From: an uncultured Gammaproteobacteria bacterium
GTDB taxonomy: Bacteria > Pseudomonadota > Gammaproteobacteria > JAURND01
Reading direction: 5' to 3'
Length of the DNA stretch: 64,000 bases
Assembly (NCBI GenBank): GCA_963714975.1
Contig: CAVQQD010000003.1
Span: forward strand, 64,001-128,000
Position 1 is the stretch's first letter; each line of letters opens with the position of its first letter. Below are positions 1 to 47,212 of the stretch, in pieces. The notes below the pieces were generated by a model. That model was not told where the DNA came from and searched no databases. It was given only the letters and a program-made list of their open reading frames with translations. The position numbers were made by a program, and so were the translations under genes.

Positions 1-20
1 CCCTGACAAAAATAAGAAAC

Positions 21-425
21 TTGGGTATGAGCATCAATATTTTATTGGTTGAGGACGAACCGATGGCGACCCGTGCGATCAAAGGTTCCTTTAAAGACCT
101 CGGTTGTCAGGTGGAGGTGGCCAATTGTGGCTTAGTTGCTTTAGAAAAGCTGCACAATCCTTTTCAGTTAATCATCTGTGATTTGGGACTGCCGGACTTA
201 AATGGCATGGAGGTTGCCCGCCAGTTTCGGCACAGCCCAGGCCCTAATAGCCAGACACCAATTCTCATTGCCACTGCGCATGGGGATAAAAAATTAAAAG
301 CTGAAGCGCGAGAATTAGGATTAACGGGTTTTCTCCATAAGCCCGTATTGTATGAATTGTGTGAGCAAATACTAAATAGATTAGTGTTGTCACAGCCACC
401 GGCCGGTTATTTTTTTGAGAATTAA
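21..425 (+). CDS. Single-domain response regulator (receiver), copy A; probably 5'-partial
   Basis: ILLVEDE, phospho-acceptor D in IICDLGLPD, ATAH, HKP. The frame is open to the window edge (LTKIRNLG matches LTKIKNFG of copy B). Confidence 0.9.
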   Translation: MGMSINILLVEDEPMATRAIKGSFKDLGCQVEVANCGLVALEKLHNPFQLIICDLGLPDLNGMEVARQFRHSPGPNSQTPILIATAHGDKKLKAEARELGLTGFLHKPVLYELCEQILNRLVLSQPPAGYFFEN

Positions 426-468
426 GAAAGACCGCCGTTCGTTGGCTGTGTAGTTGCTGGCTTCAATC

Positions 469-3400
469 CTAATTACAAACTGGTGCGACCCCGCCAGTTG
501 TATACTGGGGCGGTGGAGAGGAATGCTGTTGTTTAATTTTATAAGCAGCTACTGCAATAGCAATTACCGAAAGTCCGATCACTACGCTTGCATAATTGGG
601 GATATTAAGCACCGGGGTGTTGCTAGTTAAAAAGCCGAAGTCATTTTGGTAATCCACTCCAATACCGTAAGCGGCTAACCCTAACCCGCACACTCCGATG
701 AGGGCCGCAGTGTAAATGCGGCGATAGCTTACAGTCAGCTGCTGTAACAATCTAAAAAAATCATGGGCATTGAGTGGATGTTTGTAAGGGTGTTGCCTCG
801 GGTGCAAAAATGCTTCCACAAAGGCTTCAGCTTCGAATAAATTTCCCAATTGTTGTTGTGCGAGTGCAGTCCAAGAGGCCGGGGAAAAAGGAGGCACGGT
901 GATAATGTGCGAGCGATCGCGTAAAGCGGGTGACAGCGGAGTGGTGTCTTTTTCAGTGCCAAAATTTTGTTGGCCCAGTACCAGGAAGCCCGGATTTTCG
1001 TGGTTTATTTCGGTTAAACATTGCTCTAAATGGGATTTATCTATATCCGTCAAAAAATTGAATTGTTTAATGACCAATACCAGGCCTTGCCGATGAGCAT
1101 GGTCGACTAGGGTTTTGAAATTGCGCGCACCTGCACTAATAGTGATATGGGGAGTGTGATGTTGCTTGAGCATAGATTCAATCAGGCTCAACTTGCCACA
1201 TCCTGCCGCCCCTTGCAGAAGTACGCAGCGTTTAAAAGCCAGATTCGCGTTGCTACCTTTATGCTCTGTCAAAACATGATTTCTAATTAATAATGCCTGG
1301 GTTATGGCCTGCTTTGCATCCTGTAATTCTGCGGGAAATAATCGAGCATTAAGCTGAAAAGGTTTTGCAGTTTTTTCTAACCAGCGTGCTTCATCCAACA
1401 TAAGGACACGGATTAAATCCCTGCGGAAGTCGCGTTGCTTTTGGGGTTCTTCTATCCGCAGCGCAAATTCACCACAGAGCGCTTCAAATAGTAAATCTAC
1501 TTTTGGACGAGGTTCTGCGTTCTTTTCTAAAACTTTATAAAGCTGCATTAGATCTTGCAAATCACGCATCGAGTAGGAGGTCAGCGGTTCATATTTTTTA
1601 TACAGATCAGCACCCATTAAAGCCAGTTCAGCAATTTCCTTGGTCATTGTGCCAGTTAAATACTCTTGTAAGTATTCCTTGCCTGGCATTTTACATTGCA
1701 CAGTTTCACCGTAGAATCGCAATAACTCGTGATAATGCCGGCCGCTATACCATTCGGGGTTTACTGCGGCGACAATTTTACAATTCTTAAATTTCTCAGG
1801 TGGATAAAATTCGCCGCGAAAGAAAAGCGCACGATTTTTTTTAATGGCTTTTAATAAATGCAGTAGCTCGGGATCGTGCTTGTTGACCTCATCCAGCAGC
1901 AGCAATTTTATTTTATCTGCTGAACCATTTAGCCAATTTCCGATTTGGTCCAACCCGGAATAGCAATGATATTTCAAGGGAGTTTCATCATCAATCGCAA
2001 CCACCTTGTCGTCTGACATAACTACCTTGTTATCTCGAAAAATCTCATCATTCGGCAGGGACATCCCGTTCTCCCGCAGAGCCTCGTCTTTCTTAGCAAT
2101 ATCAGTTGCTTTTTTTTCTTCTCGTAATTCATTGAGAATATGAGTTTTACCCACTCCAGGCTCACCCTTCAGCACAATGAACTTAGTCACTTGATCCTCG
2201 TCAATAAGATAATCTAAGCGTTCTTTCATTTTGCTATATCGATCAAGATCCGTTTTGACACTACTTGCAGATTTTCGTTCAGGTGCAGAGCTTGCCTCAG
2301 CTTCCCGTTCTTTTAACTTCTCGAACATTTTGCTCCAGGTTTCACTGGTCCAGGAGTCGAACAAAGAGGTAGAAGATTGTTCTAGCCATTCTTCGCCCAG
2401 GAGTGCACGCAGTGTTTTGCCATCGCAGATATTTAATAAGCGCCAAGCGTGATTTTGATCTTTAGGAATTTCTTTAAATTTTTCCAGGCGAATGTTGGGA
2501 CCTTGTTCGGAATAGTCAAATAAAAATTTACCCAATACATTAAGAAATGCGTAATATTCACTGTCTGTAGTGTAATCATCCAGCATCAATCCTTTAATGG
2601 GATTGTGGGAATGCAGGTGGCGTTTGCGACGCAGCAGCACCTGCTGCATCGAATATAAGCGCTCCCAATTCATGCCAAAATCTTTAGGCATGGCCTGGCC
2701 CCGATGGGGATATTGCGCTGCTTTGAAAAACAATAATAACTTTTTGACTACTGCTTCCTTACTTTTAAATTCTTCTTTATTTTCCTTTAATAAATCCTGT
2801 TCATAATCTTTATCGGTAAAATCGCAGGAAATAGTCTGAAAAATAGCAGGAGGGGCCGATGCAGGCTGCACACTAATCAGGCGGCCTTCCTTAATTGCAA
2901 TGCGCTCATTATTAAATTCTAAATAAGGCTTTTCTAAAAAAAGAGCAGCGAACTCTTGTTGTAATCGCGGTGACAAGGTCCCATTGAGGATGACGGTTTT
3001 ATCTGCTTCCAAGGCTTTAAATACGGCTCGTTTCTTAATTGTAAAAAGCACTTCGTCTTGGTTAGAAGCTTTTCGTTCTTCTTTTGCTGCGGATTTACCG
3101 GGAGTTATGCTGACTAGTAATTCAGAGACGGTAAGATCGGAGGTCAAGTCAATAATAAACGCATCCCCTTTTTTTTCTGGATCATAAAGTTTCAATAATT
3201 TTTCCGCTAAATAATCCGGATCATTGCTGGTGAAACAACGAGAGGAGGGGACAGCTTGTAACTCTGCCGGATCGATTTTTTGCACTTTCGTTTCAGTGGG
3301 AGCAAGTTGAAATTGAAAATGGCTTTCTGGAAATTTTTCTTTAATATACACGGATAATTGCCGCCAATCTTCTTTGGGAATTTCCTGGGTAATGTAAAAG

Positions 3401-6400
3401 ATTACCTCTTGAGGATTATTCGCATATTGCGCCAGTTTCCCCAGTCTGCTGGAAATTGTGTTATCCGTTTCATTGTAATGAATCTCTTCGTATAGGGTGT
3501 CCCAATTGTTGAGATGCAGGCAAATTTTAGTAGCTGGTGTTAGATTCTTTTTTTCTTCCGTGATCAAGGACCAGGGCGGAGATTCGGCAGAAGAGGGTGG
3601 GGTTTTCTCAGCAGAAATGCGAACGGTGGTTTCTTTGGGCACATCTTTCCACTGACCGTTAAAATAAAAACGTCCTTCGGTGTTAATTTGTTGGAGTAAT
3701 TGCTGCAGCTGCGGATCTTCTGGCGGATTGTGAATAATTAAAGGACATTTATTTTTAATCGCTTGCAATAGTGAACCAGGCATTAATTTAATCTCACCTG
3801 GATTGAATTCAAAGCTCGCTAATAATTTTTCTTCCCAGTTGACTAAGGGGGATAAGTAGCAGTGAATAGCCTTTAGTTCGTCGTCCGGGCGTAAGTCCCC
3901 CTCTCCCCAACCCTCTCCCACCTTCCCTCGCTGACGCTCGGGCGGGGGAGAGGGAGTCCAAGTGCTCTCTCCCACCTTCCTTCGTTGACGCTCGGATGGA
4001 GGAGAGGGCACTTGGGCTGCCCCCCCTCTCCCCCGCCCGAGCGCCAGCGAGGGAAGGTGGGAGAGGGTTGGGGAGAGGGGGGCTTGGCAAAGTACACACC
4101 GTACAATCATTAACAAATGGACAGAGATTATCCTCATGAAGATAGCCAAGGATTTCAACCTTATTTCCAACGGCATGGTGATTCCAGCGTTTTTCCCGCC
4201 ATAACGATTGAAAATAAATCAGCTCTTTAGGGCTAAAAGCCGACCAATTAATTAATAATTTTCCACCGTTTTCGAAAATGTGCTGCAAAGGCCCCGGTAC
4301 TCGTACGCGTTTACCTGTTTCTTCTTGCACGGTCCAACTGTCCCAATAACGAGCAAAATCACTAGGATGATCAATACAGAGGAAATTTGGCCGCAGGACC
4401 TGCGTGCGGTTGCCACTGCTAATAATGGCTGCTTTTGCTTGTTCGGAAGTCATGCCTTTCGGCACCCGAATTAAAACTGGTTTGTTAGCGCTACACAATT
4501 TCCAAGCAAATTCGCGATGTTGATTGAGATACCGATGAATTTTATTTTCATAATCATTAGCTCTTTCCTCCAAGCGATTATCAATCGGAGAGTTATTCAG
4601 TTCAGCTTGTAATTGCTTAAGATTATGATTGCGTTTAGCAGTGGCCTTATCTTCCATTGCTCCGCCACCAAAATCGACACGACGCAATGAGCCCTTTTTA
4701 TCACGCACATCGCAATAATCATGGGTTTCATTGTGAATTAGGCATACCTCATCTTCTAATCCTAGGATACAGTGGGCTATCAACATAAAAGCTTCAGCCC
4801 GACCAGCACAAACCCCGACCTGTTGGGTAATCCGCGCCAATAATAGGTCCAAAGAACTCGTATAAGTTCCTTGCAAAGGTTTTTCAGATTCAGGCTTAAA
4901 ATTACTGCAATATGTCGTGAGTTGCGTAATTTTTTTGGTAATGCTGAGATTTTCATCAAATAAAAACGCTAATGGAGGATGAGCTTTTAATTTCGTTTCT
5001 ACTTTCGTAATTAAGTCAGTCGATGTTCTTCTTTTTTGTAACTTTAATTCCGCAATTTCAAGCAATGCAGCGGATTGATAGCTTGGATCGGGAATAAAAT
5101 CATAATAAAGTTTAACGGCTGCTGCATTGCGAGGTTTGTCTAAAATACGGATAAAATACTGCTGAGTGCTAGGATTTTGGTAAAAACCAAGTTTGACTTT
5201 AGAATTGGTATCGTCTTTGTAAATGCGCAGCGAATCTTTAATTGCGGGCGCAGTGAGTGGCAAAGGAAACTCTTGTCCAGCCTGCAATTCTCCCGTAATA
5301 ATAAGAACCCCACTATCAATTTTCGGGTCGATTCCTTTTCGGCGTTGCGTATAGGTTTGGTTAATCTCTTGAATTTTTTGAGGAGCATAACTTGAGCTTA
5401 GAAAGGAAACATGATCCGTTTTGGCTTCGTATTCAATATGATCATACACTTCGATCCGATAATCCCGCACTTGAATCGGAGTAAGGTCATGGTGTTTTAA
5501 GAATGCCGAGCATTGCCCTTCGCCAGTCGCCACGGGTTTGTCGACAGATTGTTGCGGACTAAGCGCTTTCCGCGGTGAAAAAAAGCTGATCCCCTGGATG
5601 GGTGCTTGCGGATTTGATTCTGAGGAGCGAAGGGTTGATTTGGTATCTAACGGGAACATGCCCTGCCCCAGCTTCTCACGTTCCACCTTGTCGTAGTCAA
5701 ATTTTCGTAATTTTCGATTTTTCGTTAAATCATCTCGTGAAAAAGAGCAATTAATATTACACAGATATAGATGCTCTAGTTCAGGACAATTTTCAATTAA
5801 CCGCTGCTCTATAACATCAACCTCATTCATTGAGGAATTTCCTTGTAAAAATAAGTATTTCAAGTTAGGCAGAGTCTCAAAGTTAATCTGCCATTTTTCC
5901 ATTAAGTAGGAATTTTTTTTTACTGATAAAGCATGCAATTGTGGACAGTTTTTTATAGAAAAATTCTCGGCATTTACTGCAATACAATCTTCTAAACAAG
6001 GCATGTCCTGTAAATGAACTATGTCATTATTTAGGATTTTTAAATATTTAAGTTCTGGGAAACGTTTGGCTATTTTTGGATAGTCTTCTTGAGTCAAATC
6101 GGGGCAAGTTATTATTAGCGCTTTTTCTTTACCAGGGCGTTCTTCCACACATTTTCCAAGTTGTTCAATGGTGTCAATAATTATTTCATGAGGTCTGACG
6201 ATATCGGTAAACTGCTGCTCTTCTTCGCTAGGAATCGCTTTAGATTCTTGTACCTGTTTAAAACCCTTGCCAGTGAGTGGAGGCGTAGCCGCTCGTTCGT
6301 CTGTTTTTTCAATGGCTAGCTCTAATTCTCCGTGGAGTACGGAAATTCCAATTGTTTCATAGCAACGACAGCCTAACTCTAGGGTCAATTTTTTAATTCC

Positions 6401-7213
6401 ATAGGTGCTTGCGAATGATAAATCAATATTTTTTTCTGAAGGGACAAAATCAGAGACATTTAATTCCTTGACATTATATCCTTGCAAATAAGGAATGAGT
6501 TTCTGGATCTCTTGACTGGTTGAGCGTTGGATTTTTAATGTATGCAAATTAGGAAAATTTTTTAAAATATACAGCAAGGCTTCTTGATTAGGGGCGTATA
6601 AATTAGCGGTGGTTATTAAGCTTAGATCTGCTCCCTGAAGCTCTTTTATAGTACGCTCCAGCCAAGACCGAGTCCCCATAATAAAAATCTCATGTTTTGG
6701 CCGCCCCCAGCGTGCCTCCCAAGCTTGTTTGTCTAAAACTATCCAGTCATCGAGAGCAATTTGTTGCTTAGTATTGATCAAGCTGGCTTTTATGCGGGCC
6801 GCATAATCAATTTTAATGGCCTCTCTTTGTTTAAAAAAATCTGCAAGGCTTTGTAAGGGGATGGCTTTAGCCAGGGTTTCTTCAGGCCCTTTCCATAAAT
6901 ATACTTCGTAATATTGAATAAGTTCGGAGAGAACTGCCAGCTCTCCCGCACGCAATTCATAATCAAAAGGATACGAGATGAGTATTTTCTTTTTACCGGT
7001 ATTGGCTTGGGGATGGTTATTGATAAAACAATCGGCATTGTCTCTAAGCAGGGCATTATGTTTATTGAGTTTATTCGGGCCTTTGTTGCTTGGCGTAGAG
7101 GATGGTGCTGATTCATGAACCACTTTTCCTAATAGCCATTGAGTCACTGCCTCTTCAGAATATAGAGGATCTCTTCTCGCGTCTCTTCTTGGAACTGTAG
7201 TTTCACTGGACAT
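469..7213 (-). pseudogene. Giant LRR / transglutaminase-like / multi-AAA+ / TM protein, copy A, split by a +1 frameshift (ORFs 3809-7213 and 469-4176)
   Basis: Colinear with the intact 11270-17959 ORF. The C-run at 4020-4026 has 7 C versus 6 C at 14764-14769. May be a sequencing error. Confidence 0.8.
3897..4082. repeat. Cluster of three REP-like palindromes (CCCTCTCC...GGAGAGGG) inside the coding sequence, copy A
   Basis: GC-rich inverted repeats; the same unit occurs at 14641-14825 and 19189-19249. Confidence 0.85.
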
Positions 7214-7247
7214 GGAAAATATTTAGCATGGTGGTTAACTTAGGTAT

Positions 7248-7280
7248 ATCTTACTTTGATAATATTAAGTGAATATTAAC
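7248..7280 (-). promoter_or_regulatory. PmrA-like box plus -10 element upstream of giant gene A
   Basis: Minus strand reads gTTAATATT-ca-CTTAATATT, 7 nt, TAAGAT, matching the Legionella/Coxiella cTTAAtatT tandem element. Confidence 0.75.
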
Positions 7281-7304
7281 TCGAGAGCCCTAAGTTCCAG
7301 CCAC

Positions 7305-7371
7305 CTCTGTAGGGGACAAAAATAATCCCTCCCTTTGGAAAAGGGAGGGATTATTTTTGTCCCCTACAGAG
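7305..7371. mobile_element. 67-bp perfectly palindromic mini-MITE with 9-bp target-site duplication
   Basis: 32-bp perfect arms with a 3-nt loop; TCCAGCCAC is repeated directly at 7296-7304 and 7372-7380. Confidence 0.85.
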
Positions 7372-7428
7372 TCCAGCCACAAAGGAAAAGTATGTAATCA
7401 TTCATTCATTACTTTTCAATCTGTAATA

Positions 7429-8085
7429 TTGACATCCTCTCCGGCATAAATGCCGGAGATTCCATACATGTGGCTGTGCCACGAGTATGAGGTTCTCGTT
7501 TCTACGCCGCACCCAACGCGCTTGCTCCACGAGCCATCACAGCATGCCCTGCTGCTAAAATATTTTTCGCCGCGTTCAAATCAGCATTTGCTGCATATCC
7601 GCACGATACACACGCAAATTCACCCCGGGATTTTGTAAGTCTCCCGATGCGGATCGACTCATATTTTTTACTTGCAAATCTTCCACAACCACTACCGCGT
7701 GGCTTTTGCTGATGCGGGTTGTAGTCTTGTGTAAAAAATCTCGTCTCATGTTCGATGCTTTTTGATGCAGTGCCTCTACTCGAGCCACTTGCTTCTTCCA
7801 TCGCCCAGAAAATTTTTGCTTCTTCGCTAATTTGCGCTGCTCTATCCCTAATCTTTTTTCTATCTGCCTAAAACTATTCAAGGATTCTATAGTGTCACCA
7901 TTGGATAGGGTCGCGAATTTTGCAATGCCTGCGTCTATACCTACGCTATCGACTGCTGTTGACTGCGAAGAGATGTCTTGTTGTACTTGGATACTGATAT
8001 ACCAATGTTTTCCTTGCCGCGATACCGTTACATTTCGTATGTCCCCTATGACCTCCTGGCTTCTTATTTAGCTCACTGATGAAGT
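7429..8085 (-). mobile_element. tnpB: IS200/IS605-family remnant: truncated, internally deleted tnpB with intact right end
   Basis: VGIDAG, RRDFLHK, VVVEDL, CVSCG..NADLNAAKNIL motifs in two frames; right end GGAATCTCCGGC-ATTTAT-GCCGGAGAGGATGTCAA. Confidence 0.9.
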
Positions 8086-8091
8086 TAAAAA

Positions 8092-8299
8092 GTAACCATT
8101 CACCACGATTTTGCCTCTCCCCTTGCGGGAGAGGCCGCCGCGCCGTAAGGCGCGCGGGTGAGGGGTAAGCAGCAGTTAGCATTTAGCTAATAAAATGCTC
8201 CTTGCTGATTCCAAGTTTACCCCTCATCCGCCCTTTCGGGCACCTTCTCCCACAAGGGGAGAAGGATTTTTACGCACAAAAAAGATGGTGAATGATTAC
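8092..8299 (+). mobile_element. MITE family 1 (TIR GTAAYCATTCACCA, internal REP-like hairpins), full copy
   Basis: Ends gtaaccattcacca...tggtgaatgattac; five related copies in the window. Confidence 0.85.
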
Positions 8300-8677
8300 A
8301 AATAATATAAGGCCATCTTAATAAAAAAGTTTGCTTTTAATAAAAAGCCGGCGAATAATAGCGATAACCGTGGGCAGTGCCCACGGCCGCGCCAAAAGGA
8401 TGCTCGAAACATTCTTGAGGCACTTCCGGCAACGAACCTTAGTGGAGGTCCGCAGTGGCTCTAGCAGCTTACTCGATTACGCGCTCGCGTAAAACTTTTT
8501 TCTGTGTGCTTGTCACTTTTTTTCACCCACATTGCGTTGGGCGGATGTTTTGCGCCTGGGGCAACAAATTCTTGCTGAATGATTTTCCTCGAATGCCACA
8601 GCGGTGTTGCTGGCATAAGGTAGGGATTTGCCGTGGGTTTTTTAGTGACTGGGATTCAGGGCAAGAGGAGGTAAGCT

Positions 8678-8825: not shown

Positions 8826-8874
8826 GCTTCCTTGATTCGTTGTTCGTTTCTTCTATAAATCCAGGAGCACACCC

Positions 8875-9372
8875 ATGAATGATAATAACATCAAACCCGC
8901 TTTTAAATGCTTTCGTCAACCAGGGCATCGCCCTCCTCTCGTTGATACCCTGACAAAAATAAAAAACTTCGGTGTGACTATCCATATTTTATTGGTTGAG
9001 GACGAACCGATGGCGACCCGCGCCATCAGCGGCTCCTTTAAACAGCTTGGTTGTCATGTGGATATAGCCAATTGTGGGCTAGTCGCATTGGAGAAGCTGC
9101 ACAATCCTTTTCAGTTAATCATCTGCGATTTGGGACTTCCGGACATAAATGGCATGGAGGTTGCCCGCCAGTTTCGGCACAGCCCCGGTCCTAACAGCCA
9201 GACACCAATTCTCATTGCCACTGCGCATGGGGATAAAAAATTAAAAGCTGAAGCGCGAGAATTAGGATTAACGGGTTTTCTCCATAAGCCCGTATTATAT
9301 GAATTGTGTGAGCAAATACTAAATAGATTAGTGTTGTCACAGCCACCGGCCGGTTACTTTTTTGAGAATTAA
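8875..9372 (+). CDS. Single-domain response regulator (receiver), copy B
   Basis: Receiver motifs; RBS AGGAG 7 nt before ATG 8875; near-identical to 21-425. Confidence 0.9.
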   Translation: MNDNNIKPAFKCFRQPGHRPPLVDTLTKIKNFGVTIHILLVEDEPMATRAISGSFKQLGCHVDIANCGLVALEKLHNPFQLIICDLGLPDINGMEVARQFRHSPGPNSQTPILIATAHGDKKLKAEARELGLTGFLHKPVLYELCEQILNRLVLSQPPAGYFFEN

Positions 9373-9378
9373 GAAAGG

Positions 9379-9417
9379 CCGCCGTTCGTTGGCTGTGTAG
9401 TTGCTGGCTTCAATCCT
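9379..9417 (+). repeat. 39-bp direct repeat, left of the nuclease cassette
   Basis: ccgccgttcgttggctgtgtagttgctggcttcaatcct; also at 11233-11271 (2 mismatches) and as a single copy at 432-470. Confidence 0.9.
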
Positions 9418-9420
9418 TTC

Positions 9421-9451
9421 GCTCTACTTATCCAGGGTGGATAAGTAGAGC
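9421..9451. terminator. Perfect 14-bp hairpin between convergent genes
   Basis: gctctacttatcca-ggg-tggataagtagagc; no strong U-tract. Confidence 0.55.
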
Positions 9452-9473
9452 AAGATATTCATAACAACGCTCC

Positions 9474-11147
9474 CTATTTACTTGCAACAGCAACTTCTTT
9501 CTGCCGAAATGCTAACCCTAAGTGCAAAATTTGTTGAATTCCTTTGGCACGTAACACTTGTGCATAATTGCGGTCAAAAGTCTGTTGCAAGGCTTCTTGG
9601 GCCGCTGTAGCCAAGGGGATATCGGGGTTGTGGGCAGTTTTAAACTCCAGCACAATGCCCAAGTGCGCACGATCTTTCGGGATCAGCATCACATCATAGC
9701 GGCCAAAACCACTTTCTTTATTAGATTGGACTTCATGGGTGGTTTCTAAGCTGACCATCAATCCCAGTACAAAACCATGGTAAAACTTTTCTGGTTGGTG
9801 GCCAGTAACATCGAAAATACTCAAGGTAGTTTGCAAGCAACTTTGCAAACGCAGAGTAAATTCCTCCACCTTGCCTTCAGTTAAACTCTTTAAAAAATTT
9901 ACATAGTTGCTATATCCTAATGCATCGGAGAGCCAGGCTTGGACAATATCTCTGTAGAGAATTTTTACTTCATAATTAGGCGGCATAAGTAAACATTGCA
10001 AATGTGCACCAACACGCTCTGATTTTATAGCTTTTAAGTAACCACTGAATAACAACAAACTCCACAGGGCATGGTTATCTTTTTCCAAACTGCCAAATAC
10101 GGTTTTTTCATCAATTGATGCAGTAATTGGTTGATCCGCTAACAGCAATGCCAAGTCATTTTTTAATGCTTCATCACCTCTAGCTAGTAAATGGTGAATT
10201 AAATCATTACTGCTGGTATTGACCCAGTAGGGGCGGAGTGTGCCATGGCCATTGAGACATTCAGCGATTGACCACGGATTATAAATCACGGTATCGCCTA
10301 TCAAATAACCGTTGTACCAATGTCGGATTTCATCTGCTTGTTTCGTTAAATTTGCGCGTCTTAATAATTCAGTCGTTTCTGTTTCGGTAAAACCAAAGTA
10401 ATCAGCATATTCTCGGTCTAATAGTGTGTAAACTTTCACATTATTTAACCCAGAAAATAGGCTTTCTTTAGCAATCCGCAAAATGCCTGTGATTACTGCT
10501 TTTTCTAGATAAGGATTGGTTTTTAATACCGTACCAAACAAGCCACGAATTAAAGCAATCATCTCGGAATAATAGTCATGTAAAAATGCAGAGTGAATAG
10601 GCGTGTCATATTCGTCAATTAATAACCATACTTTAGTTTTATGATGTTTAAATAGGTAATTAGTTAGGCGATAGAGTGCTTCTTCCAGCTCGGATTGGTC
10701 CAGCGTACCTTCTCTAACTTGCATAAAGTAATTTTTTTCGGCTGGATCCAGAGACTCACTTTCTAGTAGGTAGTTATATTGACTATATAAATTCGATAAC
10801 AGCAAACTTAATTTTTTTAGCGAGTGCTGAAAAGAGAGATTACGTACTCCTTTCAGAGTGATAAAAATGACCGGATACTGGCCCTGATGTTGCATATAGA
10901 GCTCACCCGCTGCAGTAATTTTCAAGCCATCAAATAATCCTTGAGTTTTACGCTCATAGGCCTCTGCCGCAAAAAAGTACTGTAGCATGGACAAATTTAG
11001 GGTTTTGCCGAAACGGCGAGGGCGGGTAATCACAATTACTTTACTGACTTCTTCCAATACATCTCGAACGAACAATGACTTATCGACGAAATCAAACTTT
11101 CCGTCAATTAGCTCAGCAAAATTATCTTGACCGATCGGCAATCTCAT
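9474..11147 (-). CDS. AAA-ATPase-like + PD-(D/E)XK nuclease protein (PF09820/PF08011 type)
   Basis: LPIG..F, VDKS, TRPRRFGKT, LLIDEYDTP, YNPWS, SNKESGFGRYD...LEFK. Confidence 0.92.
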   Translation of the reverse strand: MRLPIGQDNFAELIDGKFDFVDKSLFVRDVLEEVSKVIVITRPRRFGKTLNLSMLQYFFAAEAYERKTQGLFDGLKITAAGELYMQHQGQYPVIFITLKGVRNLSFQHSLKKLSLLLSNLYSQYNYLLESESLDPAEKNYFMQVREGTLDQSELEEALYRLTNYLFKHHKTKVWLLIDEYDTPIHSAFLHDYYSEMIALIRGLFGTVLKTNPYLEKAVITGILRIAKESLFSGLNNVKVYTLLDREYADYFGFTETETTELLRRANLTKQADEIRHWYNGYLIGDTVIYNPWSIAECLNGHGTLRPYWVNTSSNDLIHHLLARGDEALKNDLALLLADQPITASIDEKTVFGSLEKDNHALWSLLLFSGYLKAIKSERVGAHLQCLLMPPNYEVKILYRDIVQAWLSDALGYSNYVNFLKSLTEGKVEEFTLRLQSCLQTTLSIFDVTGHQPEKFYHGFVLGLMVSLETTHEVQSNKESGFGRYDVMLIPKDRAHLGIVLEFKTAHNPDIPLATAAQEALQQTFDRNYAQVLRAKGIQQILHLGLAFRQKEVAVASK

Positions 11148-11184
11148 GAAGTTCTACTCACTATGAAGGACTAGAGGAGCTGGA

Positions 11185-11213
11185 AATATGCCTTTTTAGG
11201 CGGGAATTGTCAA
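11185..11213 (-). promoter_or_regulatory. Sigma70-like promoter inside the cassette
   Basis: TTGACA-17 nt-CATATT on the minus strand, upstream of ATG 11147. Confidence 0.55.
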
Positions 11214-11232
11214 TGCATTGTCCCTCAGAAAT

Positions 11233-11271
11233 CCGCCGTTCGTTGACTGTGTAGTTGCTAGCTTCAATCCT
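11233..11271 (+). repeat. 39-bp direct repeat, right of the nuclease cassette
   Basis: ccgccgttcgttgactgtgtagttgctagcttcaatcct; overlaps the stop codon of the giant gene. Confidence 0.9.
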
Positions 11272-14200
11272 AATTACAAGCTGGTGCGACCCCGCCAGTT
11301 GTATACTGGGGCGGTGGAGAGGAATGTTGTTGTTTAATTTTATAAGCAGCTGCTGCAATAGCAATTACCGAAAGTCCGATCACTACGCTTGCATAATTGG
11401 GGATATTAAGCACCGGGGTGTTGCTAGTTAAAAAACCAAAGTCATTTTGGTAATCCACTACAACACCGTAAGCGGCTAACCCTAACCCGCACACTCCGAT
11501 GAGGGCCGCAGTGTAAATGCGGCGATAGCTTACAGTGAGTTGCTGTAACAATCTAAAGAAATCATGGGCATTGAGTGGATGTTTGTAAGGGTGTTGCCTC
11601 GGGTGCAAAAATGCTTTCACCAAGGCTTCAGCTTCGAATGAATTTTCCAATTGCTGTTGTGCAAGTGCCGTCCAAGAGGCCGGGGAGAAGGGAGGAACGG
11701 TGATAATTTGCGAACGATTGCATAAAGCGGGTGATAGCGGAGCGCTGCCTTTTTCGGTGCTGAAATTCTGTTGAGCCAAAACCAGGAATCCTGGATTTTC
11801 GTCGTTTATTTCGGTTAAACGTTGGCCTAAATGTTTTTCATCTTTAGGCTCCAAAAAATTGAATTTTTCAATAATCAATACATAGCCATGCTGATGGGCA
11901 TAGTCGACTACTGCTCTGAAATTTGGTGCGCCTGCAGTCACAGTTAAATAGGGGGTGTTATGTTGCTTGAGCATGGATTCAATCAGGCGCAACTTGCCAC
12001 ATCCTGCCGCCCCTTGCAGAAGTACGCAGCGCTTAAAGGCTAGATTCGCGTTGCTGCCTTTATGCTCTGTCAAAACATGATTTCTAATTAATAATGCCTG
12101 GGTTATGGCCTGCTTTGCATCCTGTAATTCTGCTGGAAATAACCGACCGTCAAGCTGAAAAGGTTCGGCAGTTTTTTCTAACCAGCGAGAGTCATTCAAA
12201 TTAAGGGCACGGATTAAATCTCGGCGGAAATTGCTTTGCTTCGCGGGTTCTTCTATCCGCAGCGCAAATTCACCACAGAGCGCTTCAAATAGTAAATCTA
12301 CTTTTGGACGATGTTCTGCTCCCTTTGCTAAAACTTTATAAAGCTGCATTAGATCTTGCAAATCACGCATCGAATAGGAGATTAGCGGTTCGTATTTTTT
12401 ATACAGATCCGCTCCGATTAAGGCCAGTTCGGCAATTTCCTGAGTCATCGTGCCGGTTAAATAATTTCGTAAATACTCCTTGTCAGGCATTTTAAACTGT
12501 ACAGTTTCACCATAGAATCGCAATAACTCGTGATAATGCCGGCCGCTATACCATTCTGGGTTTACTGCGGCGACAATTTTGCAATTCTCAAATTTCGCAG
12601 ATGGATAAAATTTGCCGCGGAAGAAAATAGGACGGTTCTTTTTAATGGCTTTTAATAAATGCAGTAGCTCGGGATCGTGGATATTGACTTCATCCAACAG
12701 CAACAATTTTATTTTATCTGCTGGATCTTTCAGCCACTTGCCGATTTGGTCCAGCCCAGCATAGCAACGGTATTTCAAGGAAGTTTTGTCCTCGGGCAGA
12801 GCCACCTGGTCATCAACCAGAGGCACCTCGTCTTGCTTAGCAGTATCGGTTGTTTTTTTTGCTTGTTGCAATTCATTGAGGACATGAGTTTTACCCACCC
12901 CAGGCTCACCCTTTAGCACAATGAACTTAGTAAACTGGTCCTCGTCAATAAGATAATCTAAGCGTTCTTTCATTTTGCTATATTGATCAAGATCTGTCTT
13001 GACAATACTTGCAGATTTTCGTTCAGGTGCAGAGCTTGCCTCAGCTTCCCGTTCTTTTAACTTCTCGAACATTTTGCTCCAGGTTTCACTGGTCCAGGAG
13101 TCGAATAACGAGGTAGAAGATTGGTCTAGCCATTCTTCGCCCAGGAGAGCACGCAGTGTTTTGCCATCGCAGGTATTTAATAAGCGCCAGGCGTGATTTT
13201 GATCTTTAGGAATTTCTTTAAATTTTTCCAGGCGAATGTTGGGACCTTGTTCGGAATAGTCAAATAAGAATTTGCACATTACATTGAGAAACGCGTAATA
13301 TTCACTGTCTGTAGTGTAATCATCCAGCATCAATCCTTTAATAGGATTATGGGAATGCAGGTGACGTTTGCGACGCAGCAGCACCTGCTGCATCGAATAT
13401 AAACGCTCCCAATTCATGCCAAAATCTTTAGGCATTGCCTGGCCCCGATGGGGATATTGCGCTGCTTTGAAAAACAATAATAACTTTTTGACTACTGCTT
13501 CCTTACTTTTAAATTCTTCTTTATTTTCCTTTAATAAATCCTGTTCATAATCTTTATCGGTAAAATCGCAAGAAGTAGTCTGAAAAATAGCAGGAGGGGC
13601 CGACTTGGGCTGCACACTAATCAGGCGGCCTTCCTTAATTGCAATGCGCTCATTATTAAATTCTAAATAAGGCTTTTCTAAAAAAAGAGCAGCGAACTCT
13701 TGTTGTAATCGCGGTGACAAGGTCCCATTGAGGATGACGGTTTTATCTGCTTCCAAGGCTTTAAATACGGCTCGTTTCTTAATTGTAAAAAGCACTTCGT
13801 CTTGGTTAGAAGCTTTTCGTTCTTCTTTTGCTGCGGATTTACCGGGAGTTATGCTGACTAGTAATTCAGAGACGGTAAGATCGGAGGTCAAGTCAATAAT
13901 AAACGCATCCCCTTTTTTTTCTGGATCATAAAGTTTCAATAATTTTTCCGCTAAATAATCCGGATCATTGCTGGTGAAACAACGAGAGGAGGGGACAGCT
14001 TGTAACTCTGCCGGATCGATTTTTTGCACTTTCGTTTCAGTGGGAGCAAGTTGAAATTGAAAATGGCTGTCGGGAAATTTTTCTTTAATATACACGGATA
14101 ATTGCCGCCAGTCTTCTTTGGGAATTTCCTGGGTAATGTAAAAGATTACCTCTTGAGGCTTATTCGCATATTGCGCCAGTTTCCCCAGTCTGCTGGAAAT

Positions 14201-17200
14201 TGTGTTATCCGTTTCATTGTAATGAATCTCTTCGTATAGGGTGTCCCAATTGTTGAGATGCAGGCAAATTTTAGTAGCTGGTGTTAGATTCTTTTTTTCT
14301 TCCGTGATCAAGGACCAGGGCGGAGATTCGGCAGAAGAGGGTGGGGTTTTCTCAGCAGAAATGCGAACGGTGGTTTCTTTGGGCACATCTTTCCACTGAC
14401 CGTTAAAATAAAAACGTCCTTCGGTGTTAATTTGTTGGAGTAATTGCTGCAGCTGCGGATCTTCTGGCGGATTGTGAATAATTAAAGGACATTTATTTTT
14501 AATCGCTTGCAATAGTGAACCAGGCATTAATTTAATCTCACCTGGATTGAATTCAAAGCTCGCTAATAATTTTTCTTCCCAGTTGACTAAGGGGGATAAG
14601 TAGCAGTGAATAGCCTTTAGTTCGTCGTCCGGGCGTAAGTCCCCCTCTCCCCAACCCTCTCCCACCTTCCCTCGCTGACGCTCGGGCGGGGGAGAGGGAG
14701 TCCAAGTGCTCTCTCCCACCTTCCTTCGTTGACGCTCGGATGGAGGAGAGGGCACTTGGGCTGCCCCCCTCTCCCCCGCCCGAGCGCCAGCGAGGGAAGG
14801 TGGGAGAGGGTTGGGGAGAGGGGGGCTTGGCAAAGTACACACCGTACAATCATTAACAAATGGACAGAGATTATCCTCATGAAGATAGCCCAGGATTTGA
14901 ACCTTATTCCCAACGGCATGTCGATTCCAGCGTTTTTCCCGCCATAACGATTGAAAATAAATTAGCTCTTTAGGGCTAAAAGCGGACCAATTAATTAATA
15001 ATTTTCCGCCGTTTTCGAAAATGTACTGCAAAGGCCCCGGTACTCGTACGCGTTTACCTGTTTCTTCTTGCACGGTCCAACTGTCCCAATAACGAGCAAA
15101 ATCACTAGGATGATCAATACAGAGGAAATTTGGCGGCAGGACTTGCTTGCGGTTGCCACGGCCAATAATGGCTGCTTTTGCTTGTTCGGAAGTCATGCCT
15201 TTCGGCACCCGAATTAAAACTGGTTTGTTAGCGCTACACAATTTCCAAGCAAATTCGCGATGTTGATTTAGATACCGATGAATTTTATTTTCATAATCAT
15301 TAGCTCTTTCCTCCAAGCGATTATCAATTGGAGAGTTATTCAGTTCAGCTTGTAATTGCTTAAGATTATGATTGCGTTTAGCAGTGGCCTTATCTTCCAT
15401 GGCTCCGCCACCAAAATCGACACGACGCAATGAGCCCTTTTTATCACGCACATCGCAATAATCATGGGTTTCATTGTGAATTAGGCATACCTCATCTTCT
15501 AATCCGAGGATACAGTGGGCTATCAACATAAAAGCTTCAGCCCGACCAGCACAAACCCCGACCTGTTGGGTAATCCGCGCCAATAATAGGTCCAAAGAAC
15601 TCGTATAAGTTCCTTTCAAAGGTTTTTCAGATTCAGGCTTAAAATTACTGCAATATGTCGTGAGTTGCGTAATTTTTTTGGTAATGCTGAGATTTTCATC
15701 AAATAAAAACGCTAATGGAGGATGAGCTTTTAATTTCGTTTCTACTTTCGTAATTAAGTCAGTCGATGTTCTTCTTTTTTGTAACTTTAATTCCGCAATT
15801 TCAGGCAATGCAGCGGATTGATAGTTTGGATCGGGCAGAAAATCATAATAAAGTTTAACGGCTGCTGCATTGCGAGGTTTGTCTAAAATACGGATAAAAT
15901 ACTGCTGAGTGCTAGGATTTTGGTAAAAACCAAGTTTGACTTTAGAATTGGTATCGTCTTTGTAAATGCGCAGCGAATCTTTAATTGCGGGCGCAGTGAG
16001 TGGCAAAGGAAACTCTTGTCCAGCCTGCAATTCTCCCGTAATAATAAGAACCCCACTATCAATTTTCGGGTCGATTCCTTTTCGGCGTTGCGTATAGGTT
16101 TGGTTAATCTCTTGAATTTTTTGAGGAGCATAACTTGAGCTTAGAAAGGAAACATGATCCGTTTTGGCTTCGTATTCAATATGATCATACACTTCGATCC
16201 GATAATCCCGCACTTGAATCGGAGTAAGGTCATGGTGTTTTAATAATGCGGAGCATTGTCCTTCTCCAGTTGCCACAGGTTTGTCGACAGATTGTTGCGG
16301 ACTAAGCGCTTTCTGCCGTGAAAAAAAGCTGATCCCTTGGAGGGGTGCTTGCGGATTTGATTCTGGGGAGCGAAGGGTTGATTTGGTATCTAACGGGGAC
16401 ATGCCCTGCCCCAGCTTCTCACGTTCCGATTCCGAATTTACGCATTCCAATTCTCGTAATTTTCGATTTTTCGTTAAATCCTCTCGTGAAAAAGAGCAAT
16501 TAATATCACACAGAAATAGATGCTCTATTTCAGGACAATTTTCAATTAAACTCTGCTCTATAACATCAACCTCATTTTTTGGGGAATTTCCTGTTAGGAT
16601 TAAGTATTTTAAATTAGGCAGAGTCTCAAAGTTAATCTGCCATTTTGTCGTTAAGTCGTAATTTTTGTGTACTGCTAAAATATGCAATTGTGGACAGTTT
16701 TTTATAGAAAAATTCTCGGTATCTGCTGCAGTGCAATTTTCTAAACAAGGCATGTCCTGTAAATGAACCATGTTATGATCTAGGATTTTTAAATATTTAA
16801 GTTCGGGAAAACGTTTGGCTATTTTGGGATAGTCTTCTGGAGTCAAATCGGCGTCAGTTATTATTAGCGCTTTTTCTTTACCAGGGCGTTCTGCCACACA
16901 TTTTTCAAGTTGTTCAATGGTTTCAATAGTTGTTGTCTCAGGTCTGACGATATCGGTAAATTGCTGCTCTTCTTCGCTAGGAATCGCTTTGGATTCTTGT
17001 ACCTGTTTAAAACCCTTGCCAATGATTTGAGGCGTAGCCCGTTTGTCTGGGTTTTTAATGGCTAGCTCTAATTCCCCTTGGAGTACGGAAATTCCAATTG
17101 TTTCAAAGCGGCGGGAGTCTAACTCTAGGGTCAATTTTTTAATTCCATAGGTGCTTGCGAATGATAAATCAATATTTTTTTCTGAAGGGACAAAATCAGA

Positions 17201-17959
17201 GACATTTAATTCCTTGACATTATATCCTTGCAAATAAGGAATGAGTTTCTGGATCTCTTGACTGGTTGAGCGTTGGATTTTTAATGTATGCAAATTAGGA
17301 AAATTTTTTAAAATATACAGCAAGGCTTCTTGATTAGGGGCGTATAAATTAGCGGTGGTTATTAAGCTTAGATCTGCTCCCTGAAGCTCTTTTATAGTAC
17401 GCTCCAGCCAAGACCGAGTCCCCATAATAAAAATCTCATGTTTTGGCCGCCCCCAGCGTGCCTCCCAAGCTTGTTTGTCTAAAACTATCCAGTCATCGAG
17501 AGCAATTTGTTGCTTAGTATTGATCAAGCTGGCTTTTATGCGGGCCGCATAATCAATTTTAATGGCCTCTCTTTGTTTAAAAAAATCTGCAAGGCTTTGT
17601 AAGGGGATGGCTTTAGCCAGGGTTTCTTCAGGCCCTTTCCATAAATATACTTCGTAATATTGAATAAGTTCGGAGAGAACTGCCAGCTCTCCCACACGCA
17701 ATTCATAATCAAAAGGATACGAGATGAGTATTTTCTTTTTACCGGTATTGGCTTGGGGATGGTTATTGATAAAACAATCGGCATTGTCTCTAAGCAGGGC
17801 ATTATGTTTATTGAGTTTATTCGGGCCTTTGTTGCTTGGCGTAGAGGATGGTGCTGATTCATGAACAGCTGCTCCTAATAGCCATTGAGTCACTGTCTCT
17901 TCAGAATATAGAGGATCATTTTGCGCATCTCTTCTTGGAACTGTAGCTTCATGGGTCAT
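11270..17959 (-). CDS. 2229-aa LRR / transglutaminase-like / tandem AAA+ protein with C-terminal TM pair, copy B; putative Dot/Icm effector
   Basis: LRRs (FPNLHTLKI, FPELKYLKI, LPNLKYLIL); GVCAGRA...NETHDY...RVDFGG; GEPGVGKT/LLLLDE/AAVNP; GAAGCGK...LSPALCNR; two hydrophobic C-terminal helices. Confidence 0.85.
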   Translation of the reverse strand: MTHEATVPRRDAQNDPLYSEETVTQWLLGAAVHESAPSSTPSNKGPNKLNKHNALLRDNADCFINNHPQANTGKKKILISYPFDYELRVGELAVLSELIQYYEVYLWKGPEETLAKAIPLQSLADFFKQREAIKIDYAARIKASLINTKQQIALDDWIVLDKQAWEARWGRPKHEIFIMGTRSWLERTIKELQGADLSLITTANLYAPNQEALLYILKNFPNLHTLKIQRSTSQEIQKLIPYLQGYNVKELNVSDFVPSEKNIDLSFASTYGIKKLTLELDSRRFETIGISVLQGELELAIKNPDKRATPQIIGKGFKQVQESKAIPSEEEQQFTDIVRPETTTIETIEQLEKCVAERPGKEKALIITDADLTPEDYPKIAKRFPELKYLKILDHNMVHLQDMPCLENCTAADTENFSIKNCPQLHILAVHKNYDLTTKWQINFETLPNLKYLILTGNSPKNEVDVIEQSLIENCPEIEHLFLCDINCSFSREDLTKNRKLRELECVNSESEREKLGQGMSPLDTKSTLRSPESNPQAPLQGISFFSRQKALSPQQSVDKPVATGEGQCSALLKHHDLTPIQVRDYRIEVYDHIEYEAKTDHVSFLSSSYAPQKIQEINQTYTQRRKGIDPKIDSGVLIITGELQAGQEFPLPLTAPAIKDSLRIYKDDTNSKVKLGFYQNPSTQQYFIRILDKPRNAAAVKLYYDFLPDPNYQSAALPEIAELKLQKRRTSTDLITKVETKLKAHPPLAFLFDENLSITKKITQLTTYCSNFKPESEKPLKGTYTSSLDLLLARITQQVGVCAGRAEAFMLIAHCILGLEDEVCLIHNETHDYCDVRDKKGSLRRVDFGGGAMEDKATAKRNHNLKQLQAELNNSPIDNRLEERANDYENKIHRYLNQHREFAWKLCSANKPVLIRVPKGMTSEQAKAAIIGRGNRKQVLPPNFLCIDHPSDFARYWDSWTVQEETGKRVRVPGPLQYIFENGGKLLINWSAFSPKELIYFQSLWREKRWNRHAVGNKVQILGYLHEDNLCPFVNDCTVCTLPSPPLPNPLPPSLAGARAGERGAAQVPSPPSERQRRKVGESTWTPSPPPERQRGKVGEGWGEGDLRPDDELKAIHCYLSPLVNWEEKLLASFEFNPGEIKLMPGSLLQAIKNKCPLIIHNPPEDPQLQQLLQQINTEGRFYFNGQWKDVPKETTVRISAEKTPPSSAESPPWSLITEEKKNLTPATKICLHLNNWDTLYEEIHYNETDNTISSRLGKLAQYANKPQEVIFYITQEIPKEDWRQLSVYIKEKFPDSHFQFQLAPTETKVQKIDPAELQAVPSSRCFTSNDPDYLAEKLLKLYDPEKKGDAFIIDLTSDLTVSELLVSITPGKSAAKEERKASNQDEVLFTIKKRAVFKALEADKTVILNGTLSPRLQQEFAALFLEKPYLEFNNERIAIKEGRLISVQPKSAPPAIFQTTSCDFTDKDYEQDLLKENKEEFKSKEAVVKKLLLFFKAAQYPHRGQAMPKDFGMNWERLYSMQQVLLRRKRHLHSHNPIKGLMLDDYTTDSEYYAFLNVMCKFLFDYSEQGPNIRLEKFKEIPKDQNHAWRLLNTCDGKTLRALLGEEWLDQSSTSLFDSWTSETWSKMFEKLKEREAEASSAPERKSASIVKTDLDQYSKMKERLDYLIDEDQFTKFIVLKGEPGVGKTHVLNELQQAKKTTDTAKQDEVPLVDDQVALPEDKTSLKYRCYAGLDQIGKWLKDPADKIKLLLLDEVNIHDPELLHLLKAIKKNRPIFFRGKFYPSAKFENCKIVAAVNPEWYSGRHYHELLRFYGETVQFKMPDKEYLRNYLTGTMTQEIAELALIGADLYKKYEPLISYSMRDLQDLMQLYKVLAKGAEHRPKVDLLFEALCGEFALRIEEPAKQSNFRRDLIRALNLNDSRWLEKTAEPFQLDGRLFPAELQDAKQAITQALLIRNHVLTEHKGSNANLAFKRCVLLQGAAGCGKLRLIESMLKQHNTPYLTVTAGAPNFRAVVDYAHQHGYVLIIEKFNFLEPKDEKHLGQRLTEINDENPGFLVLAQQNFSTEKGSAPLSPALCNRSQIITVPPFSPASWTALAQQQLENSFEAEALVKAFLHPRQHPYKHPLNAHDFFRLLQQLTVSYRRIYTAALIGVCGLGLAAYGVVVDYQNDFGFLTSNTPVLNIPNYASVVIGLSVIAIAAAAYKIKQQHSSPPPQYTTGGVAPACN
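14641..14825. repeat. In-frame REP-like palindrome cluster, copy B
   Basis: Encodes [20 protein letters not shown]...PSPPPERQRGKVGEGWGEG. Confidence 0.85.
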
Positions 17960-17993
17960 GGAAAATAGTTAGCGTAGTGATTCAGTTATGTAT

Positions 17994-18026
17994 ATCTTAC
18001 TTTGGTAATGTTAAGTGAATATTAAA
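17994..18026 (-). promoter_or_regulatory. PmrA-like box plus -10 element upstream of giant gene B
   Basis: tTTAATATT-ca-CTTAACATT, 7 nt, TAAGAT. Confidence 0.75.
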
Positions 18027-19185: not shown

Positions 19186-19188
19186 AAG

Positions 19189-46256: not shown

Positions 46257-46271
46257 AGAGTTTCTCCGGTA

Positions 46272-47197: not shown

Positions 47198-47212
47198 AGA
47201 GTTTCTCCGGTA

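Follow-up and report, generated by a model that had tools for sequence, protein, structure and literature searches.

The left part of the window, a 64,000-nt stretch from the genome of an uncultured gammaproteobacterium (C3:64001-128000, where C3 is contig CAVQQD010000003.1 of the 2.56-Mb, 3-contig assembly GCA_963714975.1), is a real tandem segmental duplication. Each of its two units carries a gene for a single-domain response-regulator receiver and, convergent with it, a giant gene whose product combines leucine-rich repeats (LRRs), a transglutaminase-like (TGL) core and a chain of AAA+ modules. The family to which this giant protein belongs is uncharacterised and without a name. Comparison of the two giant genes points to two processes. 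Long stretches appear to have been homogenised by repeated gene conversion or recombination, and one face of the second LRR block appears to have diverged by non-synonymous change. Together, these patterns may reflect the diversification of a binding face on an otherwise shared machine.

Structure of the tandem duplication

Self-BLAST recovers window positions 1-7279 as a direct repeat of 8948-9417 plus 11227-18025, with identities of 89-96%. The repeat is made up of three segments, each with E = 0: 1-470 against 8948-9417 (93.0%), 425-1985 against 11227-12786 (89.2%) and 2082-7279 against 12826-18025 (96.35%). The first two segments overlap by 46 bp because an insertion found only in unit 2 is bounded by direct repeats. 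A global alignment of the giant genes covers 6824 aligned bases with 399 differences (94.15% identity) and four indels of 3, 6, 1 and 57 nt. These comparisons bear out the first-pass annotation of this DNA, which had aligned 1-7280 with 8948-9417 plus approximately 11233-18026. It had further proposed that the homology runs past the left edge of the window, which it does, and that the array might be larger, for which nothing was found beyond a short relic. Homology extends 646 bp further to the left and ends at C3:63355 (window 8302-9417 against C3:63355-64470: 93.0% over 1119 columns). Copy 1 of the unit thus measures ~7.9 kb, and copy 2 is longer, at 9.7 kb, because of its 1.8-kb insertion.

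The array consists of two copies. A tblastn search with P0001, the product of giant gene copy 2, found no third tandem giant gene in the 23 kb upstream and 46 kb downstream. The upstream region gave only a relic of the giant gene's last 44 codons (C3:59767-59899, tblastn) adjoining citrate synthase, within which 62 bp (C3:59767-59828) are 96.8% identical to the giant-gene 3′ end. This 62-bp relic may mark a former site of the gene or a former copy. A third, distant paralogue, P0002, lies 650 kb away (C3:717649-724341) and shows 35-54% identity.

Mosaic identity and gene conversion

Identity between the giant genes is unevenly spread. Tracts of 731, 575, 461 and 405 nt are identical, covering approximately amino acids (aa) 1022-1265, 89-281, 1296-1449 and 571-705 respectively, against a maximum of 291 nt in 5000 permutations. 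The same excess is seen at synonymous sites alone, where runs of 258 and 250 codons lack any synonymous difference and the permutation maximum is 167. The near-identity of the N-terminal, triad and middle AAA regions, which the first-pass annotation had ascribed to gene conversion, is thus confirmed.

Synonymous divergence (dS) rises and falls along the gene in the same manner. It is 0.12 over aa 1-31, 0 over aa 32-280, 0.12-0.16 over aa 281-570, 0.02-0.04 over aa 571-1500, 0.16 over aa 1501-1650, 0.32-0.36 over aa 1651-2140 (the oldest divergent block) and 0.06 over aa 2141-2229. Values of 0.2 in the receiver gene and 0.32-0.36 in AAA modules 4-5 indicate that the duplication is old. Constraint cannot erase synonymous differences, and the mosaic therefore needs exchange between the copies after that old duplication. 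On these grounds, homogenisation of the copies by repeated gene conversion or recombination is supported.

Architecture of the giant protein

The giant protein begins with an N-terminal alpha/beta domain, followed by two LRR blocks, a beta-rich domain with the TGL core, the AAA+ chain and C-terminal hydrophobic helices. AlphaFold models of its two halves were built from shallow alignments (12 and 15 sequences), with a mean pLDDT of 66 for the N-terminal half and of 69, with a pTM of 0.58, for the C-terminal half. Searches with the single sequence returned little. Pfam, run at E up to 1 over P0001 cut into eight pieces, found nothing in aa 60-200, 760-1043 and 1109-1330; NCBIfam matched P0001 at P-loop level only; PDB sequences gave chance matches alone (E 0.04 or worse); and the N-terminal domain (aa 70-200) found no family in the ESM Atlas, with a best score of 0.84. 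A family profile searched against the PDB was more productive, matching LGR4 (E 2e-11), many other LRR proteins, and the MoxR-type ATPase NorQ. Among 20 family members, Pfam recognises AAA_5 in 12, Transglut_core in 9 and LRR families in several.

The second LRR block contains seven repeats in aa 362-512, each with a strand in the model at repeat positions (p) 3 to 7, as in an LRR solenoid. Foldseek matches include LRRC8A, TLRs and internalin, at E 1e-3 to 1e-5, with NRC2 also listed. Both copies carry the TGL superfamily triad (GxC...H...D), whose Cys and His are the same in all 20 family members examined, and the N-terminal model matches the periplasmic domain of TgpA (6g49/6g4h, TM 0.44-0.46). 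Any peptidase, deamidase or transglutaminase activity is putative. In the third paralogue, P0002, both the catalytic Cys and His and the C-terminal hydrophobic helices are missing.

Of the AAA+ modules, module 4 (~aa 1655-1950) carries a Walker A motif (GEPGVGKT) and a Walker B motif (LLLDEVN) in both copies and across the family, and Pfam AAA_5 scores 26.8-32.5 bits against a cut-off of 22. Module 5 (~aa 1955-2140) keeps the Walker A lysine. Its Walker B acidic pair is lost in all three paralogues of this genome but not in relatives from other genomes. In the family profile it is this module that matches NorQ, the sole AAA+ match in the profile search of PDB sequences. The C-terminal model resembles the dynein motor (Foldseek E 6e-20; VIA-align Z ~20, with 560-620 residues at 4-5 Å over AAA2-AAA4) and the Mdn1 ring (Z 17.3), such that, in this model of pTM 0.58, three to four modules superpose on both structures. 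Comparison of modules by hhalign supports the pairs M4-M5 (96%) and M1-M3 (91.5%), while the candidates M0 and M2 reach 12% or less; we therefore claim at least four modules. The prediction is thus of at least four MoxR-clade AAA+ modules in one chain, in an arrangement like that of dynein AAA2-AAA4. A closed six-module ring was considered and is unconfirmed, given that M0 and M2 lack hhalign support. Pfam scans detected no vWA domain in the giant protein or its relatives. The C-terminal hydrophobic helices are confined to the tandem pair, in which copy 1 conserves them; none of six other family members scanned has them.

Divergence of the LRR zone

Amino acid differences between the copies cluster, as the first-pass annotation had stated, in the LRR block and the last two AAA modules: 54 of 230 residues differ in aa 281-512, hereafter the variable zone, and 91 of 490 in aa 1651-2140. 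The variable zone has accumulated 63.8 non-synonymous (Nd) and 18.2 synonymous (Sd) differences. Pairwise codon models give a ratio of non-synonymous to synonymous rates (omega) of 1.10 for this zone, 0.22 for aa 513-1650 and 0.38 for aa 1651-2229, and a likelihood-ratio test rejects an equal omega for the zone and the C-terminal block (p 0.0009).

The five pairs of LRR motifs quoted in the first-pass annotation are all present as given. That annotation had also read them as diversifying selection at the concave x positions of the repeats, with the scaffold kept. Taking these positions as defined beforehand (p2, 3, 5, 7 and 8), 16 of 34 are changed, against 17 of 95 other non-scaffold positions (Fisher p 0.0023), and the scaffold positions p1/4/6 have indeed stayed, with 2 of 20 changed. 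The proportion of non-synonymous change at the concave x positions (pN 0.24) exceeds the synonymous proportion of the zone (pS 0.127, p 0.04). These counts account for the 35 changed residues of LRR block 2.

The distribution across the repeat is broader than the x positions and sharply one-sided. Along the strand, outward positions (p3/5/7) are changed in 11 of 20 cases and inward positions (p4/6) in 1 of 13; the ascending loop (p8-14) is changed at 20 of 47 positions, and the convex or descending side at 2 of 55. Outward strand and ascending loop together therefore contain 31 changes in 67 positions, against the 2 in 55 on the convex side (p 3e-8), and their Nd:Sd of 39:4 contrasts with 2:5 (p 0.001). 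Face-specific non-synonymous divergence of LRR block 2 is thus supported by the sequence comparison. Compensated frameshifts were considered as the source of the runs of changed residues and rejected, the changes being single-base substitutions at codon positions 1 and 2.

Several points weigh against reading this pattern as selection on a binding face. Omega for the whole zone is not different from 1 (p 0.73). About a third of its changes (19 of 54) lie outside the repeats of LRR block 2, in aa 281-361, which comprise the end of LRR block 1 and a linker modelled partly at low confidence; LRR block 1 itself is unchanged. The clustering that the first-pass annotation described stands, and its attribution to the repeats holds in part. 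The LRR register was set by hand from motifs and checked against DSSP strands of the model with mean pLDDT 66, and it is from this register and these strands that we infer a 'concave face'. Register shifts of +2, +3 and +6 yield counts of 16-17, as high as the true register, while shifts of -1 to -9 yield 1-9. Variable residues thus occupy the strand as well as the loop after it, and are not strictly confined to the alternating x positions. Omega reaches 2.7 for p2-p14 (p 0.035 against 1), compared with 0.08 for the rest of LRR block 2, for a class that was defined after the register-shift control had been seen. Only two sequences are compared, and the evidence for omega above 1 is marginal (p 0.035-0.04). 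The LRR matches of P0001 itself fall under the Pfam cut-offs (LRR_8 and LRR_At5g56370, E 6e-4 to 2e-3), and at E up to 1 P0001 has no Pfam Transglut_core match. Consensus scans, which are weak evidence, found no sigma-70-like promoter in the 66 bp shared upstream of the giant genes; scans of the same kind and weight place terminator-like hairpins upstream of both copies. Positive selection in LRR block 2 is accordingly no more than marginal by these sequence measures, and diversification of a binding face is supported, not proven from two sequences. Of the first-pass claim, non-random change on the strand and loop face survives, strict confinement to x positions does not, and diversifying selection is marginally supported.

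Other origins of the divergent residues were examined. Conversion from the third paralogue is an unlikely source, with only one 216-bp stretch at 75% nucleotide identity. The LRR zone has no further copy in the genome, and thus there are no silent donor cassettes. A diversity-generating retroelement was likewise set aside, there being no template copy and no adenine specificity in the differences (A takes part in 48 of 77 differences within the LRR zone and 105 of 203 within the C-terminal block); no search aimed at a reverse transcriptase was made.

A model for the tandem pair

In the account that we hold with moderate confidence, an old duplication followed by gene conversion has left one catalytic and motor chassis with two different binding specificities. 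LRR block 2 would select a protein target, which the AAA+ chain, with its one fully canonical ATP site in module 4, would grip or remodel, and which the thiol-enzyme core would cleave or modify. The hydrophobic tail would hold the machine at a membrane. After the old duplication, in this account, repeated gene conversion erased differences over ~57% of the gene, while the strand and ascending-loop face of LRR block 2 stayed different and gained almost only amino-acid-changing substitutions. Selection for two binding specificities would keep that face apart, with the other side of the repeats conserved. The duplication, the mosaic, the pattern of changed sites, the domain folds and the motifs are shown; that the protein binds a target, acts as an enzyme and sits at a membrane, and that selection is the cause, is what we infer.

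Alternative explanations

An unlikely alternative is relaxed constraint, in which copy 1 is redundant and decaying, the LRR changes are drift, and a frameshift is the latest step. Copy 1 is indeed frameshifted, its G run near 4026 having one base more than that of copy 2. With P0002 as outgroup, 46 derived residues are assigned to copy 1 and 22 to copy 2 (p 0.005, with 115 sites unpolarised), an excess that is strongest in modules 4-5 (25 against 11). Frameshift and derived residues together make some relaxation in copy 1 likely, which counts against the two-specificity account. So does the zone-wide omega of 1.10, indistinguishable from 1, and drift under structural constraint would also yield a conserved scaffold with a variable surface. 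Yet copy 1, read with an X at the break, continues for 2247 codons with no other stop, and neither the triad nor the module-4 ATP site differs between the copies. Constraint acted while most of the divergence arose, as the omega values of 0.22-0.38 outside the LRR zone and of 0.08 on the convex half of LRR block 2 show. General relaxation would not predict that the solvent-exposed convex side changes at 2 of 55 positions while strand and loop change at 31 of 67, and simple decay is hard to reconcile with a convex side that is nearly invariant next to a highly variable strand and loop. The contrast fits a binding face that underwent diversifying, or at least directional, change.

The frameshift itself could reflect recent inactivation, a mistake in the assembly or the working of an on/off switch. 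An error in a homopolymer is quite possible, if short of probable, and would be compatible with the model of two specificities. The G run lies in a compound palindromic element that is translated in frame in both copies, is missing from all six aligned relatives, and folds as DNA at -105.6 kcal/mol (z -15.8). Its 60-bp arms occur at 57 loci in the genome, and a short relative of the element is found at 19185-19247.

Recombination with foreign alleles would also produce a mosaic, the divergent blocks having been imported from other strains, and the mosaic alone does not say which blocks are derived. We regard this as improbable. The copies are closer to each other in every block than to anything else (nearest 53-54%, in the C-terminal half), they share at 99.5% the palindromic element that the six aligned relatives lack, and their alternating blocks would require several separate imports.

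Comparably doubtful is the idea that the receiver is the functional partner of the giant protein, with a two-component signal switching that protein on and the two genes duplicated as a regulatory module. Both receivers are intact and under purifying selection, differing at 11 of 165 aa with dN 0.036 and dS 0.20. Pfam Response_reg finds them at E 9e-21 and 2e-21, and LLVEDE, ICDLGLPD and HKP can be read in both translations, which we take to be the acidic pocket, phospho-acceptor Asp and conserved Lys of a receiver domain. A kinase is also paired with a MoxR/TGL-type trio in the PFNA cluster, according to a passage of PMC8430577. The genes, however, converge: 44 bp lie between their stops in unit 1, and the inserted gene lies between them in unit 2. 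None of seven homologous giant-gene loci has a receiver within 6 kb, nor is there one near P0002, and near-identical receiver genes (~87.6% at the nucleotide level) occur at three unrelated loci of the genome. Stand-alone receivers are plentiful: 18 such open reading frames (ORFs) match the window receiver at E < 1e-26. Of the receiver paralogues, four are nearly full-length and mutually close, and a fifth is broken. The 'receiver + giant-gene unit' of the first-pass annotation is therefore apt for a duplicated pair, and as a functional pair it is not supported.

That the locus is an assembly artefact, with two strain haplotypes of a single-copy locus concatenated and the frameshift a homopolymer error, is highly improbable: this is a 3-contig assembly from an uncultured organism, and a G run differing by one base causes the frameshift, but the copies differ by a 1.8-kb insertion with direct repeats, a 57-nt indel and a 1-kb spacer with an insertion sequence relic, the genes flanking the two units are not duplicated, dS reaches 0.36 in one block and is 0 in others, unlike co-existing strains, and the family is multi-copy elsewhere (a third paralogue here, and two copies in each of two other genomes).

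Family and distribution

The family is much larger than it seemed. A word-indexed protein search gave 7 relatives, and an exhaustive search gave 534 library representatives at E up to 0.001, of which 127 reached E 1e-30 or better, upon which the notion of a rare family was dropped. Members are mostly 2,000-2,900 aa long and match via their C-terminal half, where the proteins closest to the tandem pair show 53-54% identity. Every one of seven loci in species-representative genomes belongs to a metagenome-assembled genome of uncultured Gammaproteobacteria or Pseudomonadota. Among 60 relatives of the window's genome, one has the family. In the literature searched by full text, which excluded supplementary files, no description of the LRR-TGL-AAA single-chain architecture was found.

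All family-holding genomes share a further trait. DotI/IcmL (PF11393) is above cut-off in the window's genome and in all 7 of the other genomes with the family, against a background of 20 of 61 relatives in which kin are not independent. Co-occurrence with Dot/Icm is therefore genomic context for a possible translocation, and not proof of it. The window's genome has three DotI/IcmL genes. Six kb to the left of the window, a 681-aa ORF (C3:55596-57638, reverse strand) contains a SidE phosphodiesterase domain (E 3.5e-29), a domain that occurs in Legionella SidE-family effectors.

Comparison with known systems

Non-synonymous change at LRR strand and loop positions, together with exchange between tandem paralogues, is typical of NLR clusters. 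The giant genes resemble those of plant NLRs in both respects, their changes concentrating on LRR strand and loop positions and their sequences being exchanged between tandem paralogues. The 'immune-type receptor' of the first-pass annotation is nevertheless not supported: the giant protein has no STAND NTPase, and its NTPase part is predicted to be a MoxR/dynein-like AAA+ chain. Matches to NACHT, nSTAND3, nSTAND6 and NB-ARC cover the P-loop only (20-50 residues) and stay below cut-off. The best of the PADLOC defence models is VakA, at E 3.8e-5 over 27 residues of the P-loop, and the others are weaker.

Closer parallels are found in the three-gene MoxR/DUF58/TGL system. Passages of Zhang & Aravind 2012 (PMC3495828) propose that the MoxR/vWA/TGL (YebA/TgpA) system is a membrane-proximal protein-processing machine, and that it is the root of the connection between dynein and TGL. 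To such a system the bifidobacterial PFNA cluster adds a species-specific binding protein and a kinase, as described in part of PMC8430577. The giant protein shares with these systems MoxR-clade AAA+ modules, a TGL Cys-His-Asp domain, here predicted to lie at a membrane, and a separate binding module. It differs in fusing all of these in ~2,230 residues, in having a chain of AAA+ modules instead of a single module that forms homo-hexamers, and in an LRR array that takes the place of the vWA/DUF58 or FN3 binding protein. Its hydrophobic helices, moreover, are C-terminal and present in the tandem pair only.

Concatenation of modules is what separates dynein from almost all other AAA+ proteins, according to the portion of Gleave et al. 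2014 (PMC4047620) that treats it. Like dynein, midasin (Rea1/Mdn1) and RNF213, the giant protein has several AAA+ modules per chain, some with ATP-site motifs, and its predicted structure superposes on dynein and Mdn1. Unlike them, it is bacterial, much shorter, and has no linker, stalk, MIDAS or E3 module. By sequence its modules are nearer to NorQ/MoxR than to dynein, and their ring arrangement comes from a model with a pTM of 0.58.

The proposed division of labour, with a variable LRR and a conserved enzyme in multi-copy paralogues, matches that of the IpaH/SspH effectors. In IpaH, as set out in a section of PMC9046306, a variable N-terminal LRR gives substrate specificity, the enzymatic part is highly conserved, and the paralogues are multi-copy. 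The enzyme there is a NEL E3 ligase and here a TGL core with an AAA+ chain; size and secretion system also differ, and translocation is only putative here.

Other features of the locus

The features of the two units are collected in Table 1. The 5′ end of receiver copy 1 lies 72 bp to the left of the window, and upstream of unit 1 are a DUF4143 ATPase gene, an ATPase_2 gene, citrate synthase and the ORF with the SidE phosphodiesterase domain.

Table 1. Coordinates of features in and around the two units (window positions unless prefixed C3; amino acid numbers are those of copy 2)
Feature	Position	Strand	Details
Receiver gene, copy 1	1-425 in window; full C3:63928-64425	+	Pfam Response_reg, E 1.8e-21
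Giant gene, copy 1	469-7213	-	Two overlapping ORFs, 3809-7213 and 469-4176
Compound palindromic element, copy 1	3893-4085	.	~192 bp, translated in frame; holds the frameshifting G run
Variable zone, copy 1	5681-6373	-	Corresponds to aa 281-512 of copy 2
Spacer between units	7280-8301	.	IS605-type TnpB relic and dispersed repeat of ~190-210 bp (8092-8301)
TnpB relic ORFs	7502-7881	-	Pfam OrfB_IS605, E 3e-17; Cas12f1-like_TNB
Left part of unit 2	8302-9417	+	573-bp upstream region, receiver copy 2 (8875-9372), 39-bp direct repeat (9379-9417)
Receiver gene, copy 2	8875-9372	+	Pfam Response_reg
Insertion, unit 2 only	9418-11226	-	39-46-bp direct repeats at both ends
AAA-ATPase_like + PDDEXK_9 gene	9474-11147	-	557 aa; Pfam E 3.9e-44 and 2.2e-15
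Giant gene, copy 2 (P0001)	11270-17959	-	Intact, 2229 aa
Two C-terminal hydrophobic segments	11357-11518	-	aa 2148-2166 and 2183-2201; hydropathy scan
MoxR/dynein-like AAA+ chain (predicted)	11540-14635	-	aa 1109-2140
Compound palindromic element, copy 2	14637-14828	.	In frame, aa 1044-1108
Transglutaminase-like core	15395-15577	-	aa 795-855; Cys803, His832, Asp847; identical in both copies
LRR block 2, copy 2	16424-16876	-	aa 362-512, chief site of the non-synonymous divergence; seven repeats, from aa 362, 387, 406, 425, 450, 478 and 501
Variable zone, copy 2	16424-17119	-	aa 281-512: end of LRR block 1, linker, LRR block 2
LRR block 1		-	aa ~195-280; no change between copies
Inverted repeat copy	18076-18264	.	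98.9% identical to 8092-8280; directly outside the right end of unit 2

The insertion in unit 2 consists largely of an AAA-ATPase_like + PDDEXK_9 gene that is multi-copy in the genome, its other copies having 70-79% nucleotide identity. Some 20 diverged copies and fragments are dispersed genome-wide, which, with the flanking direct repeats, suggests a mobile or selfish gene. A dispersed repeat of ~190 bp occurs at 8092-8301, 18071-18264, 38350-38526, 45176-45311, 61834-61930 and C3:61535-61723, with 93-99% identity. Inverted copies of it bracket unit 2, and one copy has a terminator-like hairpin.

Elsewhere in the window, a second giant ORF (38703-45179, forward strand, 2158 aa) matches nothing in Pfam at E up to 0.001 and by tblastn bears no relation to the LRR-TGL-AAA gene. 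Beside it, at 45339-49306 on the reverse strand, stand four tandem PD-(D/E)XK 'transposase' genes (PDDEXK_2, Rpn-type), ~1 kb apart and 94-97% identical, some of them shortened.

Implications

Tandem LRR paralogues that diverge on a binding face while conversion homogenises the rest are a familiar pattern, so that in evolutionary terms the pair offers a clean bacterial example of it and no new principle. More notable is the protein itself, in which a concatenated AAA+ chain, considered a hallmark of dynein, midasin and RNF213, is joined to a TGL core and an LRR selector. We speculate, as a possible but doubtful extension, that it represents an unrecognised bacterial family of single-chain, dynein/midasin-like multi-AAA+ machines, bearing a TGL enzyme and aimed by LRRs. 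Such a family would be confined to Dot/Icm-bearing bacteria and used against host proteins, with the tandem pair as two aiming variants that gene conversion keeps uniform elsewhere and the G run as a slippage switch that chooses between them.

If bacterial in origin, the giant protein would be a living example of the MoxR-plus-TGL fusion that has been proposed as the root of the link between dynein and ciliary TGL proteins. Whatever its origin, the protein offers a testable model of MoxR-TGL systems, in which a single molecule unites the binding module, the motor and the thiol enzyme. Because its two natural variants are distinguished almost solely by the presumed binding face, they amount to a ready-made specificity swap.

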